A stretch of DNA of 64,000 nt, taken from a virus. The DNA is taken from positions 1-64,000 of IMG/VR virus record IMGVR_UViG_3300030105_001626; one strand, written 5' to 3'. How positions within the stretch are numbered: position 1 is the stretch's first letter; every line of letters starts with the position of its first letter. A program made the position numbers and the translations under genes. This document shows, in pieces, positions 3,387 through 40,583 of this stretch. Below the pieces are notes generated by a model. It worked only from the letters and a program-made list of their open reading frames with translations, searched no databases and was not told where the DNA came from.

Positions 3387-3569
3387 TTATTCCGTCCCAG
3401 GTATTCTTTGTTTAGTCTGAGTCAAATGATATCGATATCTTTTCAAATAACTTAACGCTCTTTTTGGTTCGTGTATTGGATTTGGTAAAGGACCAAACAA
3501 TCTGTCCATGTCTTCTACTATCTCTTGAGCTTCTTCATCAGGTATGTGGTCTTCACCTAAAACTATCAA
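3387..3569 (-). CDS. hypothetical protein
   Basis: ORF track; FG.LPNP.HEPK motif seen in T4-like small proteins. Confidence 0.6.
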   Translation of the reverse strand: MIVLGEDHIPDEEAQEIVEDMDRLFGPLPNPIHEPKRALSYLKRYRYHLTQTKQRIPGTE

Positions 3570-3802
3570 ATGAAAGTTCTCACTACTCCATATCCATATA
3601 ATACCGCCATCATTACATTTATTATGATAACACTTGGTTCACGCCAGAGACTTCCGATGTAAATCCAACCGATACCTGCTACAGTACCTAACCAGACATT
3701 TAGTGGGAACATTTCTAATGCAGATGCTAATGCACAACCGCAGGCAGCTATCGTAGATAACCACTTAACCCAAAATGCAAATGTTGATTGATTTGATATC
3801 AT
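3566..3802 (-). CDS. small membrane protein
   Basis: KW.ST...FPLN...G..GW...G..WRE.S...IN pattern; three TM segments. Confidence 0.65.
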   Translation of the reverse strand: MISNQSTFAFWVKWLSTIAACGCALASALEMFPLNVWLGTVAGIGWIYIGSLWREPSVIIINVMMAVLYGYGVVRTFI

Positions 3803-4111: not shown

Positions 4112-4582
4112 CTACTTTCTTGGTGAACTTCGGCTATATCCATTGGATTTAGGTGATGAGTTATTATAAGTAATGGTGTCCGGTTTTGATATAAGATTAT
4201 CTTTCCTTATTCGACAAGTGACCCAATCATTATAGTATTCGTGTGTAACTAGAGCATCTCGTGTAAATATCTCGTACGTCTCGAAATAAGATAGTTCTGA
4301 ACGAGTCTTACATAGATGTAGAATTTCTCTCGTAAAATGTTTCTTACCAGCCTTCTGTACATCTTCTTTGATTACTTTGTTTGAACCCCAATATTCTTCC
4401 CAATCAGACTTCACTCTAATTTTTTTCTTCTTACCTTTTACTTGTTTTCTAGAAGCCTTGGTAAAAAACTTCTTACCTACATACTTTCTATTATTCTGTA
4501 AGTTGGTGATTAGGTAAACTATCCCAAAATACTCACCAACATTTTCTTCAGTAAATTCTTTACCTCTAAATGTCCAATTCAA
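4112..4582 (-). CDS. GIY-YIG family endonuclease
   Basis: GIVYLITN...RKYVGKK, YWGS, FTREIL, YYN motifs. Confidence 0.8.
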   Translation of the reverse strand: MNWTFRGKEFTEENVGEYFGIVYLITNLQNNRKYVGKKFFTKASRKQVKGKKKKIRVKSDWEEYWGSNKVIKEDVQKAGKKHFTREILHLCKTRSELSYFETYEIFTRDALVTHEYYNDWVTCRIRKDNLISKPDTITYNNSSPKSNGYSRSSPRK

Positions 4583-4598
4583 TATAGATTCAACCTTT

Positions 4599-4769
4599 CT
4601 AATAAGTTACGTTAGGATTATATGGTGCATCATTTTTATTTATGGGCTTTATAGCTAAGTATTCACCACAGAATGGGCAATAAGTAGGTTCATCGTCAGC
4701 TGTCTCTTCACTGTAACTTACTACAAATTCAGATTGACAACTACTACAAGTGTGGTCTAATGTCTTCAC
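4599..4769 (-). CDS. zinc-ribbon protein (56 aa, GTG start)
   Basis: Manual translation with CSSC...YCPFCG; AAGGA RBS; not in ORF track. Confidence 0.7.
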   Translation of the reverse strand: MKTLDHTCSSCQSEFVVSYSEETADDEPTYCPFCGEYLAIKPINKNDAPYNPNVTY

Positions 4770-4800
4770 TTTTTATTTCCTTTATATTCAACAATTCAAA

Positions 4801-5217
4801 TTATACTGCAACAACTGGAATAGATATTTCCCTTTGTGACTTTTTCTTTTCATAATCAGCCAAGGCACCTTTAATGGCATCTTCAGCTAAAACTGAACAA
4901 TGTATTTTAACTGGCGGCAAAGCTAGTTCTTCTACTATGTCCATATTTTTAATTTCTTGAGCTTGCTCAACAGATTTACCCTTGAGCCAAGTTGTAACAA
5001 GACTACTTGAAGCTATAGCTGAACCACATCCGTATGTTTTGAATTTAGCATCTTCTATAATTCCAGTGTCTTCATTAATTTTTATTTGGAGTTTCATTAC
5101 ATCACCACAAGCAGGAGCGCCAACCATACCAGTTCCTACTGTCGGGTCATTTTTGTCCATTGAGCCCACGTTTCTAGGATTCTCATAATGGTCTAATACA
5201 CCTTTACTATAAGCCAT
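4801..5217 (-). CDS. iscU: Fe-S cluster scaffold IscU
   Basis: DHYENPRNVG, GAPACGDVMKLQI, FKTYGCGSAIASSS, LPPVKIHCS motifs. Confidence 0.97.
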   Translation of the reverse strand: MAYSKGVLDHYENPRNVGSMDKNDPTVGTGMVGAPACGDVMKLQIKINEDTGIIEDAKFKTYGCGSAIASSSLVTTWLKGKSVEQAQEIKNMDIVEELALPPVKIHCSVLAEDAIKGALADYEKKKSQREISIPVVAV

Positions 5218-35533: not shown

Positions 35534-38077
35534 TTAACCAAAGAATGATTCTAATGAGTTTGATTTCTCTACTTCCCAACCAATTGAATCTAGAATAATT
35601 CTGAGTGGGTCGACAAATGATTTCTGAAATTGTAATTCATAATCCACATAATCTTCGATATTAAATTCTTTTGGACAACTATTAGTGAATGATATAACAT
35701 CAGTATGAAAGTTGTTTGGTTGTTTGAGATATATGAATTTAATCTTCTCGCCTTCTTGAATTCTTTGATGTCTTTTCTTGAGACCTAGTTTATCGAGTTG
35801 ATGATTATATACTAATGCACCACGAACATGTATAGGTGTTCCTTTACCCCATATAGATTTATTACAACTATATTGTTTGAGACCATTCATTGACCTTGGA
35901 AATGCAATATCTTCTACTGGTAGTTTTTTGAATTCATCTTTGAACGCAGCTATATATTCTTGGACTTGTTCTTGTTCGCCAAGTACTAGAAGTTTTAATG
36001 CAGACTTAATCTTTTCACGACAAGCGCCAGGCGTAGATGATTTAATCGCCTCTAGACCTTGAATCTTCATTTGAGGTTCAGTGTATTGAACGCCTTCTGA
36101 ATTATATACATTTAGAATATATCTTTTCTTTGCAGTCCATATTGCTTTGTCAGCCAAGACTTCTCTTTTCATTACCATCTTTTGTGAATATGAATTAAGA
36201 TAAGTTGCGAGTTCAGTATAACTTTCATCAATAAAAGGTTGAAGCTTTTCTTCGCAGAATTTATCCATGACTTCTATTGCTTTTTGTTTACTATATTCTT
36301 TTTCGCCAAATACTTTATTGATAAGCAATTCAAGATTAAGATATACTGAATCTGTATCTGATGCTAGAACATAATCAAATGCATTTGTCTGTAATACTTT
36401 ATTTAGATATTGATTTAGTTTCTTTTCAATCCATCGAATAGATAATTGACCTGCCATAGTAATGCCTTCTGCTTGTCTCACATCAAAGAATCTAAAGTAT
36501 TGATTACCTAGAGCACCATAAGCTGAGTTCAGACATTCTTTCTTAGTTAGTTGCAAGTTTGCATATCGAGATACGAGAGCTGCATAATTACTTTTTTCTT
36601 CTGGCGTAGTTGCATCTTCAAACTTTTGTTGAGCAGCAAGCATTTTCTTTTTATATACAGTTCTGTCATTATACATCTTCTCAAGAATCTCTGGTAAGAA
36701 ACCTTGTTTAGTTTTCTTGAAGAATTGTCCGTTTGGAGTAAATGCTACATCTGTTACTTTAGTTAAGTCAACTTCTTTAGCAATTAACTTATCAATGTTT
36801 ACACCATCATTAAGAACTTCTCGCATATCTTTTGTATATTTGTCAGGTTCAACAATCGTGTCTGGTGATATATTATATTGCATCATCAAATGTGGATATA
36901 GTGAGTTTAAATCAAACGATGCTACCCAATTGAACATTCCGATTTGAGGGCTTTTTACATAAGCACCTTCATAAGCTGCATTTTTACTTGAGAAACTTTT
37001 AGGCGGAATTGCAATCTTCTTTTGATATAGATAATTATGTACAATTGTGTCCCACATACGAACTTGTGTAAATATCTCATCATAGTTTACTTTTGAATCA
37101 TAAGCAATTGTAATTGCCATTTCTAACAATCGACCTTTCTCATTCAACTTTTCTACAAGTTCTACATCTCGAATATTATACTCAATGAATAGTTGATGAT
37201 TCTTTTTATACAAATCAAACAGACCATCATATTCAGAATAGGCTATCTTTTTACCAACGCCTTCTGATTGAGCAATTGTATCTAATCGATAATTATCTTG
37301 TGAACGACTTGTAGAGAATCTTCTGAACAATCTCATGTAATCTAAAGTTGCAACACCTGATATATTACCAATTTGTATTGCACGACCATAGAATGTTTCA
37401 TCTCGAATTGAAACATATCCCCAAGGAGATAATTGTTTCATTGTGTCTTCGCCTGCTATTTTAGCAAATCTATTAATGATGTAAGGTATATCAAAACCAT
37501 AAACATTCCAACCAGTGATTGCATCAGGATAATTATTAGTCCAGACTTGCATGAACATTTTAATTAAATGATACTCATCTTCACATTGAAACCATTCAAC
37601 ATCTTCTCTATGCTTTTTGTAATCACCGATACCAAACACATAATACTTATCTTTGTTTGAGAATTTTACAGTGATTGCAGTGATAGGTTCAGCTGCTGCT
37701 CTTGGTTCAGGAAATCCATTCTCAGAACCAACTTCGATATCAATATTAGCAATGCATAGGTCTTTATAGTCCCATGCAATTACTTCTTCTGGATTGTTTT
37801 CTGCGATAAATGGATATTCGAATCTATCATTACCATAGACTTTGAAGTTACTGACATCTTTATATTTCTTAAGAAAGTCTTTAGCTTCTCGAATTGAATT
37901 GAACTTCATAGGGTCGAGTGACTCACCATGAAATGTTTTCCATTCAGTTTGTTTATTTGAAGGAACAAATAATGTTGGAGAGTATGTTATTTTTTCACGA
38001 TGTCTTACACCGTTTTTAACACCTCGATAATATATATTGTTTCCTACGACTCTTACATCAGTATAATATTTTGACAT
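35534..38077 (-). CDS. 43: family B DNA polymerase gp43
   Basis: DIEV exonuclease motif, FDLNSLYP, LNSAYGALGN, SDTDS; uninterrupted. Confidence 0.98.
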   Translation of the reverse strand: MSKYYTDVRVVGNNIYYRGVKNGVRHREKITYSPTLFVPSNKQTEWKTFHGESLDPMKFNSIREAKDFLKKYKDVSNFKVYGNDRFEYPFIAENNPEEVIAWDYKDLCIANIDIEVGSENGFPEPRAAAEPITAITVKFSNKDKYYVFGIGDYKKHREDVEWFQCEDEYHLIKMFMQVWTNNYPDAITGWNVYGFDIPYIINRFAKIAGEDTMKQLSPWGYVSIRDETFYGRAIQIGNISGVATLDYMRLFRRFSTSRSQDNYRLDTIAQSEGVGKKIAYSEYDGLFDLYKKNHQLFIEYNIRDVELVEKLNEKGRLLEMAITIAYDSKVNYDEIFTQVRMWDTIVHNYLYQKKIAIPPKSFSSKNAAYEGAYVKSPQIGMFNWVASFDLNSLYPHLMMQYNISPDTIVEPDKYTKDMREVLNDGVNIDKLIAKEVDLTKVTDVAFTPNGQFFKKTKQGFLPEILEKMYNDRTVYKKKMLAAQQKFEDATTPEEKSNYAALVSRYANLQLTKKECLNSAYGALGNQYFRFFDVRQAEGITMAGQLSIRWIEKKLNQYLNKVLQTNAFDYVLASDTDSVYLNLELLINKVFGEKEYSKQKAIEVMDKFCEEKLQPFIDESYTELATYLNSYSQKMVMKREVLADKAIWTAKKRYILNVYNSEGVQYTEPQMKIQGLEAIKSSTPGACREKIKSALKLLVLGEQEQVQEYIAAFKDEFKKLPVEDIAFPRSMNGLKQYSCNKSIWGKGTPIHVRGALVYNHQLDKLGLKKRHQRIQEGEKIKFIYLKQPNNFHTDVISFTNSCPKEFNIEDYVDYELQFQKSFVDPLRIILDSIGWEVEKSNSLESFFG

Positions 38078-38474: not shown

Positions 38475-39005
38475 TTAAAAGTAATCGCCAATTCCACCAC
38501 TTAAAGAACCAGTTTGAACTGGCTTTTCTGCAGGAGTTTCTACCGGTGCTTTTGGTCCACTTCCCATAGAATATCCACTTTCATCTTCTACTGGATATGA
38601 TGATTGTTTTGTTTCAAATTCCCAACCTTCTTTTACAAATTGTTGAAAGTTTGGTGGTGTCCATGTTGTAGGTTTTAGAATCTTACCATCTTCTCTCTTT
38701 GTTACCAATCCAGTTTCTTTATTAATCTTAATTAAATTATTTGCAGCACCTTCTTTCCAGATACCATCAACATTTAATCCTAATGAATTCATGTAGCCAA
38801 GAATAACCCATATTGAATCAAAACAAGCATCAATGATTTCTGGTTTATCGCCAATAGCCATGCTTGTGTGTAATTCTGCAATCTCTTCTTTTATAAGATT
38901 ATAATATAGGTCAGATTGTGGTTGATTAACCGTTGTTGTGGTTTGTCCTGCAGCTTTCATAAAGGTCTTTACATCTTTATTAAAATTTGTGATTGCTTTA
39001 GTCAT
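38475..39005 (-). CDS. MazG-like nucleotide pyrophosphohydrolase
   Basis: LIKEEIAEL, DACFDSIWV, NNL.K, REDGKILKP..W..P motifs. Confidence 0.85.
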   Translation of the reverse strand: MTKAITNFNKDVKTFMKAAGQTTTTVNQPQSDLYYNLIKEEIAELHTSMAIGDKPEIIDACFDSIWVILGYMNSLGLNVDGIWKEGAANNLIKINKETGLVTKREDGKILKPTTWTPPNFQQFVKEGWEFETKQSSYPVEDESGYSMGSGPKAPVETPAEKPVQTGSLSGGIGDYF

Positions 39006-39472
39006 AATATTTTCCTTGATTTATAATATTTTTTCATTCCTTCTGATATCTTAGTCTTTGTTTCGTCACTATGCCATTCTAGTTCTTTTGCCTTTTGATT
39101 AGCAACACGAGAGGCACGATTGTTTCTAGCGTGTTCGGCAGTTCTTACTTTACCACTTGCAGACTTAGACATTTTTCTTTTGGTCTCTTCAGAATGTTTT
39201 TTGCCAATCTTACTTGCAATCATTCTAGCTTTGCCTTCTGGTGACATTCTATTTTTCATACTCCCACCAATTGAGCGTGCCATGAAAAGCGCCTCGTCCT
39301 TATTCATTTGACCTTTTAGCATATGCCAGGCCATAAAATCTTCTTGTTTTCCATGTTGTTCGTATAATTTCTTATGAGCGAGACTATGGTCTTCAACTGA
39401 AAGTTCTATAAGATTGGATGGTTCGTCTGTTCCACCCATGTGCTTAGGTATTATGTGATGTTTATGTTTCAT
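39002..39472 (-). CDS. free-standing HNH homing endonuclease with NUMOD3 DNA-binding repeats
   Basis: HHIIPKHMGGTD..SNL..L...DH...H HNH core; GKKHSEETKRKMS and HSDETKTKISE NUMOD3 repeats; start reassigned to MKHK, downstream of the CTAAATA promoter. Confidence 0.88.
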   Translation of the reverse strand: MKHKHHIIPKHMGGTDEPSNLIELSVEDHSLAHKKLYEQHGKQEDFMAWHMLKGQMNKDEALFMARSIGGSMKNRMSPEGKARMIASKIGKKHSEETKRKMSKSASGKVRTAEHARNNRASRVANQKAKELEWHSDETKTKISEGMKKYYKSRKIL

Positions 39473-39477
39473 ACATC

Positions 39478-39504
39478 TATTTAGTAGCATCGTGAGTTCA
39501 AACC
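39478..39504 (-). promoter_or_regulatory. late-type promoter (CTAAATA) with adjacent putative endonuclease operator
   Basis: GGTTTGAACTCACGATG (39504-39488) matches the spliced pqqA junction GGTTTGAAGTGACTATG at 14/17 nt. Confidence 0.65.
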
Positions 39505-39520
39505 TAACTCTTTGCCCAAC

Positions 39521-39543
39521 AAAAAACCCTCTTGCGAGGGTTT
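39521..39543 (-). terminator. intrinsic terminator after pqqA
   Basis: AAACCCTC-GCAA-GAGGGTTT followed by TTTG; GNRA loop. Confidence 0.85.
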
Positions 39544-39605
39544 AATGATTTTACTATTCTGATAAAGCGTTTGTAATTTGTAACAACTTTATATATTGTG
39601 AATAA

Positions 39606-39955
39606 TTATCTATTCATAACATACATAGTCACTTCAACGTAGTGGTGGCAGGCGTTCCAGAGTATTCGTCTTTTTGCCTGTTGCCTTGTTATCGATGTGG
39701 CTCTTTATCCTCACCTTCAATATATCACTATATTGTCCAGACTATATCATCAAGACTTGTTGTCTTGCCGGGCACTCGTGTCATCTTCATCACTGTTCTA
39801 GTGGTATGATGTTAGTCGTTGAACCTTCTCATAATCCCTTATGAGCTTGGATGCTGATTGTCTCGAAAGATGTCCCAGCAGTTCACCCGGTTTTAATTGG
39901 GCCTAAATCAAATTAACCCAAAACGCATTTCAGTTGCTGATGGAGTTGTCCACAT
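39606..39955 (-). CDS. pqqA: pyrroloquinoline quinone precursor peptide PqqA, split gene: exon 1 39955-39916, exon 2 39637-39606
   Basis: Spliced product MWTTPSATEMRFGFEVTMYVMNR (23 aa) with E-x-x-x-Y core; AAGGA RBS; the unspliced frame stops at ...RFGLI*. Confidence 0.95.
39638..39915 (-). mobile_element. group I self-splicing intron without ORF (278 nt, IA-like)
   Basis: 5' exon ends in U; P1 UUGGGU/GCCCAA with U.G at the splice site; P GAACUGCUGGG; Q CAAUCAGCAUCC; R GGUUCAACGACUA; S GAUAUAGUC; P3 CCGGG/CCCGG; P8 CAAGAC/GUCUUG; P9 CAAUAUA-GUGA-UAUAUUG; terminal omega-G. Confidence 0.95.
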
Positions 39956-40062
39956 AGTATTGATTCCTTTTTAAAAAGTTATATTAAAGAACCAGGTCAA
40001 CAGAGAGTATTTCTACAAAGTCTGCCTTGAGATTTAACAAACAATTTCTATTTGTTAAAGGT

Positions 40063-40091
40063 ATTTTATACTACTTGACAGCTAAAAGCAA
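40063..40091 (-). promoter_or_regulatory. sigma70-type promoter of pqqA
   Basis: TTGCTT-N17-TAAAAT, about 100 nt upstream of the pqqA ATG. Confidence 0.55.
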
Positions 40092-40118
40092 TAGAGAAAA
40101 TCATTAAATTGTTCTAGA

Positions 40119-40583
40119 CTATTTTATTAGTCCTACCTTGTATACAGTTTTGCCATTTTCTTTCATAGCAGTTAAAGCTCTTTTACGGTTGCTACCATCT
40201 GTTTTGTGACTTACATGAACCCAACCAGAGTCATCAATACCTGGAGTATAAAACTCCAATATTACTTGGTCGAAGTCGAGGTTGTCTACAATATACTGAG
40301 CCAGGTCTGCATTGGCGACACCAGGACACTCTATGTCGGCAGCTTCACCGTGACAGTGTTGTGATTTAGATGAACCGCCTACTGCTTTGTTAAGTTCTGG
40401 ACCACGATATCCTGAATTGATTGTTGTTACGCCAAAATGGTCTCTGACCTTTTGCACAACATTATCGAATAAGGCTTTTGCATTTTCTAGATGACCATCA
40501 TCTGGAGTATTATCAATGTCCATTCGAATTGCTGTTTGGCTTTTAGTAAATTCTTGTAGTGTAAAGTTTTCAGATAGTTTCAA
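40119..40583 (-). CDS. peptidase M15 family (endolysin candidate)
   Basis: SGYR..LN.AVGG...SQH..GEAAD and WVHVS motifs. Confidence 0.9.
   Translation of the reverse strand: MKLSENFTLQEFTKSQTAIRMDIDNTPDDGHLENAKALFDNVVQKVRDHFGVTTINSGYRGPELNKAVGGSSKSQHCHGEAADIECPGVANADLAQYIVDNLDFDQVILEFYTPGIDDSGWVHVSHKTDGSNRKRALTAMKENGKTVYKVGLIK

Follow-up and report, generated by a model that had tools for sequence, protein, structure and literature searches.

A split pqqA gene and a neighbouring HNH endonuclease gene in a marine methylotroph phage: a probable case of collaborative homing

Collaborative homing has been proposed as a route by which mobile introns originate, and very few natural cases of it are known. 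Precedents are described in PMC6083498 and PMC2988022. In cyanophage S-PM2, the intron of psbA and the free-standing endonuclease F-CphI form such a pair, for which both cleavage and protection were shown in vitro (Zeng, Bonocora and Shub 2009, summarised in PMC6083498). In phage T4, an intron lacking a functional endonuclease is mobilised by a free-standing HNH-family enzyme, which is encoded next to the gene that contains the intron; the same may be the case here. A related form of control is known from I-TevI, which represses its own transcription through a look-alike of its homing site at its late promoter; this look-alike is cut poorly, its cleavage motif being missing (PMC2988022). Here, we describe the pqqA locus of a phage represented by IMG/VR virus record IMGVR_UViG_3300030105_001626, of which positions 1 to 64,000 were analysed (hereafter the window, part of a 77.6-kb viral contig with an estimated completeness of 44%). 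Its pqqA gene is interrupted by a group I intron and followed by a gene for a free-standing HNH/NUMOD3 homing endonuclease. Judging from sequence comparisons, we think it likely that intron and endonuclease gene together form a two-part mobile element directed at pqqA, an auxiliary gene of the phage. Related phage fragments suggest that the enzyme recognises the unsplit gene, and intron and enzyme probably spread together.

In its setting, the locus resembles the S-PM2 system: in both, a T4-like marine myophage carries a group I intron without an open reading frame (ORF) in a host-derived auxiliary metabolic gene, a free-standing endonuclease gene lies next to it, and the proposed logic is that the intron-less allele is cut while the intron protects its carrier. 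The enzymes differ, as F-CphI has an Endo VII motif (PMC6083498), whereas the window enzyme combines HNH and NUMOD3 domains. The targets differ as well, psbA for F-CphI and the 23-codon peptide gene pqqA for the window enzyme, and cleavage and protection are deduced from sequence here rather than observed in vitro. We know of neither codon-recoding immunity nor a promoter-proximal site mimic for F-CphI; both are features of the pqqA system as we describe it below. Compared with T4, where the intron keeps a decayed endonuclease ORF and the targets are genes of nucleotide metabolism or replication, the pqqA intron has no such ORF and its target is an auxiliary metabolic gene.

Pyrroloquinoline quinone (PQQ) is the cofactor of methanol dehydrogenase, and pqqA is the 23-codon gene for its precursor. 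All genes near the window locus, and all features given below by window position, lie on the minus strand. A group I intron, structurally intact and ORF-less, interrupts pqqA between Gly13 and Phe14. Exon 1 (39916..39955, with the ATG at 39955) comprises 13 codons and the first base of codon 14, encoding MWTTPSATEMRFG plus one T; read without splicing, the frame meets a stop after 15 codons. Exon 2 (39605..39636; TT GAA GTG ACT ATG TAT GTT ATG AAT AGA TAA) encodes FEVTMYVMNR followed by the stop, and contains the Glu-X3-Tyr motif as well as an ATG at codon 18. The splice junction, GGG T/TT GAA, was fixed after the first base of codon 14 from intron-less relatives, which read ...CGT TTT GGG TTT GAA GT... 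at this point. Exon 1 and the junction are the same in the intron-less contigs L004, L005 and L006, and the spliced 23-residue product of the window is identical to the L004 peptide, which scores 41.3 bits against PF08042 (cut-off 21.1) and 38.5 bits against TIGR02107 (cut-off 20).

The intron (39637..39915; 279 nt, with its terminal G at 39637) comprises helices P1, P3–P9, P7.1/P7.2, P9.1 and P10. As the original prediction had it, the intron encodes no ORF, none inside it being longer than 28 codons. In a local search against the Rfam model Intron_gpI (RF00028), it scores 65.3 bits (gathering score 50; E 2.8e-16). It was detected only with about 700 nt searched, and scans of the whole 64,000-nt window, at the gathering threshold and at E <= 0.001, returned nothing; this miss is a filter effect and does not count against the intron. 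Further introns in this phage could escape whole-window scanning in the same way. The structure (67 pairs) was drawn by hand on an alignment of seven homologous introns from the same site (window, L024, L008, L152, L335, L218 and L224). Over these introns, 97.6% of the 467 cells are paired and 19 of the 67 pairs show compensatory changes, a level that none of 500 shuffles reaches; pairing falls to 33–42% when partners are slid by 1–3 columns. P3, P4, P5, P6, P7, P8 and P9 are each 94–100% paired, with compensatory changes in P3, P6, P8 and P9. In P1, the exon end UUGGGU pairs with the internal guide GCCCAA (39902..39897), and the pair formed by the synonymous third base of Gly13 is G-C in three introns, A-U in two and U-A in two. 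P1 can form in each of the seven introns, the splice-site U-G pair is present in all of them, and the terminal G is invariant in the alignment.

The endonuclease gene (39002..39472) encodes a free-standing 156-residue HNH/NUMOD3 protein, assigned from Pfam, PHROG 655, clade alignments and a tree. It had been placed about 130 nt past the pqqA stop, beyond the terminator and with its start at 39472; the spacer from the pqqA stop to the ATG measures 132 nt, the start indeed lies 3' of the terminator, and the protein begins MKHKHHIIPKH at 39472. A longer ORF starting at 39490 was rejected because all homologs begin at MKHKHH. The protein matches HNH (PF01844, 22.1 bits, cut-off 21.4), NUMOD3 (PF07460, 30.7 bits, cut-off 20.4) and PHROG 655, annotated as 'homing endonuclease' (E 1.1e-20). 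Residues H5, H6, N20, H29 and H33 are invariant across 19 clade members and all intact in the window protein, and we infer that this copy is active. Structural comparisons gave no significant match, and we claim no likeness of the enzyme to I-HmuI or other homing endonucleases of solved structure: the AF2 model has a mean pLDDT of 78.7, a Foldseek search of it against the PDB gave no match at E <= 0.001 and local HNH-core matches of 35–39 columns (rmsd 0.6–1.8), a wide VIA fold search gave generic helical matches (Z <= 4.5), and a sequence search of the PDB gave weak HNH-domain matches. An origin of the gene inside the intron is unsupported, as no intron variant contains an ORF remnant.

The endonuclease belongs to a group that is consistently found next to pqqA. 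A profile of the HNH alignment was searched against viral contigs; the best 80 of 338 relatives were kept, and a maximum-likelihood tree of 82 rows was built. All pqqA-adjacent HNH genes of this tree fall into one 28-row clade (ultrafast bootstrap 99, SH-aLRT 99). The clade gene lies beside pqqA in 27 of 27 evaluable members, compared with none of 54 outside the clade (L161 joined the count after a looser search; L150, whose 5' end is cut, was left out). The arrangement itself is variable: 11 members lie on the same strand 3' of an intron-less pqqA, seven lie 3' of an intron-bearing pqqA, and in the remaining nine the two genes converge, 3' end towards 3' end. On its far side, the HNH gene has varying neighbours, a MazG-like gene in the window and other genes in L072 and L152. 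Because pqqA is the only constant neighbour of the clade, and free-standing homing endonuclease genes sit near the site they cut (PMC6083498; PMC2988022), pqqA is the likely target of these enzymes.

Intron and endonuclease gene also occur together more often than separately. The original prediction implied that intron-less pqqA should be common and conserved in related phages, and we found its junction in at least 120 viral contigs, four near-identical relatives among them, with a high degree of conservation of the gene. Close relatives were identified through the MazG-like neighbour, with flanks 84–97% identical at the protein level, and they fall into three types. In L004, L006 and L007, pqqA is intron-less and the slot between pqqA and the MazG-like gene is empty. 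In L005 (and L003, whose 5' end is cut), pqqA is likewise intron-less and the slot holds a different endonuclease gene of the Endo VII type (PF02945, E 4e-24). In L008, L024 and the window, pqqA carries the intron and the slot carries the HNH gene. From 40100 up to where the intron is inserted, the window matches L004 and L005 at 100% identity, which drops to about 80% in exon 2 and the spacer. The Endo VII-type gene (L005:1743-2240) encodes 165 residues, matches PHROG 2914 and belongs to the catalytic family of F-CphI; the pqqA beside it is intron-less and of standard sequence.

Intron searches that were blind to the HNH gene recovered four known contigs (those of L008, L024, L152 and L224) and added L335. 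In these samples, the HNH gene lies downstream of five of six intron-bearing alleles, versus one of 111 intron-less alleles (counting those with at least 800 nt of downstream sequence; Fisher p 2e-7), and the association persists after collapse to lineages (p 6e-5). In a metagenome scan with the boundary of exon 1 and intron as query, an HNH gene lies downstream of all six intron-bearing loci, at a distance of no more than about 600 nt; three of these loci are new alleles (L515, L533 and L534) and three repeat contigs or alleles already counted. In the overall tally, the HNH gene lies just downstream in nine of ten evaluable intron-bearing alleles, versus one of the 111 intron-less ones, L229 (which ends inside the intron) and L150 (which starts 5 nt before the HNH gene) being left out. 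The co-occurrence survey that had been proposed as a check thus shows a distribution that is not independent, with L335 as the exception; from these contigs, intron and HNH gene appear clearly associated, yet separable. Among the new alleles, L515 carries a convergent HNH gene of the same clade as the window gene. L533 (pqqA-oriented 4311-5000) and L534 (1619-2293) carry a second, unrelated-looking HNH/NUMOD family of 224–229 residues (ELHHIIPRSLGGSDD...), also convergent to an intron-bearing pqqA.

A copy of the junction at the promoter of the endonuclease gene indicates what the enzyme may bind. The pattern GGNTTYGARGTNAC corresponds to pqqA codons 13–17, spans the insertion site and is copied as GGN-TT/T-GAA-GTN-AC. 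In the window, a mimic of this intron-less junction lies at 39492..39505 (AGGTTTGAACTCAC versus GGNTTYGARGTNAC, two mismatches), 33 nt upstream of the HNH ATG. At no more than two mismatches, it occurs in each of the clade's 20 distinct upstream regions, 24–48 nt from the ATG and at 30–33 nt in 18 of them, whereas 38 of 38 upstream regions of HNH genes outside the clade have at least three mismatches (Mann-Whitney U = 0, p 8e-11). The consensus of T4-type late promoters is well established, and in most clade members the mimic is followed by 3–8 variable bases and then by a (T/C)ATAAATA-type box 12–13 nt upstream of the ATG; in the window, the predicted late-promoter-like box ACTAAATAG occupies 39477..39485, 5–13 nt upstream of the ATG. 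Around the mimic, the spacers and terminators of the clade have diverged past alignment. The mimic is also found in the convergent clade members, in which the 5' end of the HNH gene faces away from pqqA, and in L515 it is inverted with one mismatch. Borderline inverted junction-like sequences upstream of the L533 and L534 genes have at least three mismatches and were not counted as support; no junction mimic was found upstream of the Endo VII-type gene of L005, which was likewise not counted.

These features make the mimic a candidate operator or self-site of the endonuclease. In I-TevI, and putatively in I-TevII as well as I-TevIII, the operator looks like the homing site and overlaps with the late promoter (PMC2988022). 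Like I-TevI, the pqqA-associated HNH gene has a homing-site-like sequence at or beside a putative late promoter that would lack the part presumed to be needed for cutting. The pqqA-associated gene is free-standing, unlike the intron-encoded I-TevI, I-TevII or I-TevIII; I-TevI is, in addition, a GIY-YIG enzyme, and the operator role proposed here, unlike that of I-TevI, is read from clade conservation alone. Whether operator or fossil, the mimic indicates that the enzyme would bind the sequence split by the intron (GGNT/TTGAAGTNAC).

Within exon 2, codon 18 shows a second pattern. The background comprised 110 intron-less pqqA genes that have no HNH gene nearby and are followed by at least 800 nt of sequence; in these, codon 18 is ATG in 108 and TTA in two, and never starts with C. 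Counted as distinct alleles, codon 18 differs from ATG in two of 100 background alleles. Among the 14 distinct intron-less alleles adjacent to an HNH gene, it is CTT or CTA in seven, GCT in one and ATG in six, whereas all six distinct intron-bearing alleles adjacent to an HNH gene keep ATG. Recoding is thus found in eight of 14 HNH-adjacent intron-less alleles versus two of 100 background alleles (p 2e-7), and versus none of the six intron-bearing ones (p 0.04). The eight recoded alleles are usually linked to the rare codon CGT at position 23. The intron-bearing alleles resemble the background except at Gly13, where they have rare codons pairing with the guide. The simplest reading of the mimic and codon 18 together is a bipartite site, likened to those of other modular phage endonucleases, in which one part, over the junction, would serve for binding and another, near codons 17–19, for a critical contact or the cut; a carrier would then have to disable one part or the other.

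Taken together, these comparisons support the collaborative-homing reading of the pqqA locus and allow a possible course of events to be outlined. A late-expressed HNH enzyme would bind GGN-TTT-GAA-GTN-AC in the intron-less pqqA of a co-infecting relative and cut nearby, probably around codons 17–19. Recombinational repair would then copy exon 2, the spacer and the HNH gene of the donor, and the intron, only 12 nt upstream of codon 18, would be copied along with high probability. Carriers would escape self-cutting either because an intron divides the binding site, which is the case in the window, or, where they are intron-less, by a change of codon 18 from ATG to CTT, CTA or GCT. At the promoter-proximal copy of the junction, the enzyme could repress its own transcription without cutting, as I-TevI does, so that expression would be kept low.

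Other explanations can be given for the same data. If the HNH protein is a pqqA-directed endonuclease that spreads by intron-less homing, the intron might be a hitchhiking passenger in the co-conversion tract without a protective role. Most clade members indeed lie beside an intron-less pqqA, so the enzyme lineage can do without the intron. The distance of the intron from the HNH start is about 410 nt, and from codon 18, presumed to be critical, only about 12 nt, so that it would be co-converted anyway; L335, in turn, shows an intron persisting without the endonuclease gene. We nevertheless regard a mere passenger as unlikely, given that intron-bearing carriers show no recoding of codon 18 and their exons look like those of susceptible alleles, leaving the intron as the only visible difference, and that the intron is inserted centrally within the 14 nt conserved at the clade's own promoter. 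The pairing could also be a coincidence, in which the space between pqqA and the MazG-like gene is a permissive slot for selfish endonucleases and the window copy is inactive or has another target, such as the MazG-like gene or the spacer. The Endo VII-type gene that fills the same slot in L005 and L003, next to a pqqA that is intron-less and standard in sequence, would fit this reading, as would the position of the nearest HNH genes of cultured phages between structural genes and the lack, in the window protein, of a C-terminal tail found in L008 and L024. However, clade members keep pqqA as their neighbour while the gene on the other side and the orientation vary, the mimic accompanies the endonuclease gene also where the 5' end of this gene faces away from pqqA, and the clade-invariant HNH residues are all intact in the window, which makes coincidence very improbable in our view. 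As for the 14-mer itself, it could stem from a decayed second pqqA copy and be a fossil of this copy, or of an ancestral insertion, rather than a working operator. In the window, the likeness to pqqA extends past the 14-mer to ...AATAGAT, in the frame of the HNH ORF (FELTM-LLNR versus FEVTMYVMNR), and both host genomes and a large viral contig (L208) do contain tandem pqqA copies. Against this stand the conservation of the 14-mer and the late-type box in 20 of 20 regions at nearly fixed offsets, while the bases between and around them, including terminators and remaining spacers, have diverged beyond alignment, and the inverted mimic of L515. We hold a fossil to be rather improbable, and it would still mark pqqA as the ancestral target.

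Returning to the two-part element as the preferred reading, several observations weigh against it. L335 has the intron and no HNH gene; this contig is syntenic with L152, and the entire cassette of terminator, mimic, promoter and ORF is absent from it. The related contigs are not independent, so that the Fisher and Mann-Whitney p-values overstate the evidence. Codon 18 is still ATG in six of the 14 intron-less alleles next to an HNH gene, although these six mostly have other rare bases (GTC ACG) or a Glu-Ile-Ser variant of the motif. The presumed cut site is drawn only from the codon-18 pattern, and linkage could partly explain this pattern because exon 2 travels with the endonuclease cassette. 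The mimic of the window is among the most degenerate (two mismatches or a 1-nt deletion) and, within the window alone, it is not significant (seven matches with at most two mismatches versus 10.8 expected); it carries weight because of its positional conservation across the clade, and for that reason only. The window protein also lacks the zinc-finger-like tail of about 30 residues (CPHC..H..H) present at the C-terminus of its nearest relatives L024 and L008, so this copy could be weakened; the same tail is missing from many clade members of 154–165 residues. Finally, contigs from RNA libraries leave splicing of the window allele unproven. Metatranscriptome contigs in which exon 1 is joined to the intron could be precursor RNA or DNA. 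One contig from run X16 (window 39915-40136, depth 19.4) is the same as the window through exon 1 and switches at the exact splice position to the exon 2 of another allele, encoding ...EVTMYVC...; it may be RNA spliced from a different intron-bearing allele, or else an intron-less relative may have been transcribed, and RNA of these two origins looks alike. Exon 2, the spacer and the HNH gene have no RNA cover, a lack on which we base no conclusion.

The sequences around the two elements show further variation. Near the 3' end of the intron, alignments reveal an optional peripheral hairpin of 46 nt (39640..39685), which is missing from the introns of relatives (231–246 nt), L008 and L024 among them; both forms occur in one marine DNA run, where a joint from 39639 to 39686 skips the 46 nt. 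Downstream of pqqA, a terminator scan identified an intrinsic terminator (39516..39543) with an 8-bp stem and a 4-nt loop (39543..39524) followed by a T tract; its position is kept in relatives, while the stems differ. The HNH gene of the window is a mosaic of L024-like and L008-like segments, with 81–89% identity to L024 in the 5' half and 55–63% in the 3' half. Its 3' end (39002-39100) joins the native ribosome-binding region of the MazG-like gene directly, as in endonuclease-free relatives, and its stop overlaps the MazG-like start (ATGA, 39005..39002). The MazG-like (PRA-PH) gene (38475..39005; PF01503, E 2.3e-8) forms the conserved right-hand flank of the endonuclease slot and is 95–96% identical in relatives with and without the HNH gene.

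The window derives from a T4-like myophage, whose gp43 DNA polymerase gene (35534..38077) is about 49% identical to cyanomyophage polymerases, and its source is a marine phage of methanol-using bacteria. At least 14 DNA runs of marine or seawater origin, contributed by many studies, contain the pqqA locus nearly complete. A megablast search of the locus against cultured phages gave no match, and a distant-mode search against them returned generic matches to the intron core and the intron-less pqqA of phage P19250A, and nothing else. In a search of bacterial contigs, a 35-nt degenerate pattern covering the junction and codons 17–20 matched at least 120 contigs, nearly all from Methylophilaceae; the pqqA of this host family thus carries the same junction sequence as the phage gene. 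Several Methylophilaceae genomes have at least two matches to the pattern per contig, some of them close together (L361, L385 and L393). On the phage side, L208 has tandem pqqA genes (3510-3581 and 3644-3715, minus strand) beside a convergent HNH gene of the clade.

Phage-borne pqqA has been described as an auxiliary metabolic gene of methylotroph phages in Lake Baikal viromes (PMC7678222). These copies and that of the Methylophilaceae phage P19250A are, like the window gene, Methylophilaceae-type peptide genes in methylotroph phages; they are uninterrupted, whereas the window pqqA carries an intron. In P19250A (KX815270; L001:3015-3086), an intact 23-codon pqqA (MWTTPAATEMRFGFEVTMYVMNK) lies in a GenBank stretch without an annotated feature. 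Split peptide genes such as the pqqA of the window will escape automatic annotation. In the literature searched, we found no paper that combines pqqA, phage and intron, and no report of an intron in pqqA.

As judged from these comparisons, the locus is a new, well-documented natural case of the collaborative-homing arrangement, and it is unusual in its target, a 23-codon auxiliary metabolic gene, and in the use of an HNH/NUMOD3 instead of an Endo VII enzyme. Further unusual features, as predicted here, are the intron and codon recoding as alternative immunity devices inside one endonuclease clade, and, for a free-standing endonuclease gene, a promoter with a site mimic like that of I-TevI. Three kinds of endonuclease genes occur just 3' of pqqA: the pqqA-specific HNH/NUMOD3 clade, the HNH/NUMOD genes of L533 and L534, and the Endo VII type of L005. 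We tentatively entertain a joint reading, which we hold to be possible though short of probable, in which pqqA is a target contested by these three kinds of endonuclease, the clade enzyme represses itself, intron and codon recoding are interchangeable immunity devices, and the chromosomal pqqA of the host may also be cut because host copies share the junction. If true, the alleles at this locus would form the first natural series allowing a direct comparison of how well an intron and a target-site mutation protect, and operator-type self-regulation would be reported for the first time in a free-standing HNH endonuclease.

The pqqA locus adds a natural case of collaborative homing with an unusually rich comparative series, as uncultured marine and freshwater methylotroph phages provide alleles with neither part, with the endonuclease only, with the intron only and with both. 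The promoter-proximal copy of the junction predicts a recognition sequence from sequence alone, and the codon-18 pattern predicts the position of the cut or of a critical contact. More broadly, the locus bears on how selfish elements may shape exchange between co-infecting phages of abundant methylotrophs.

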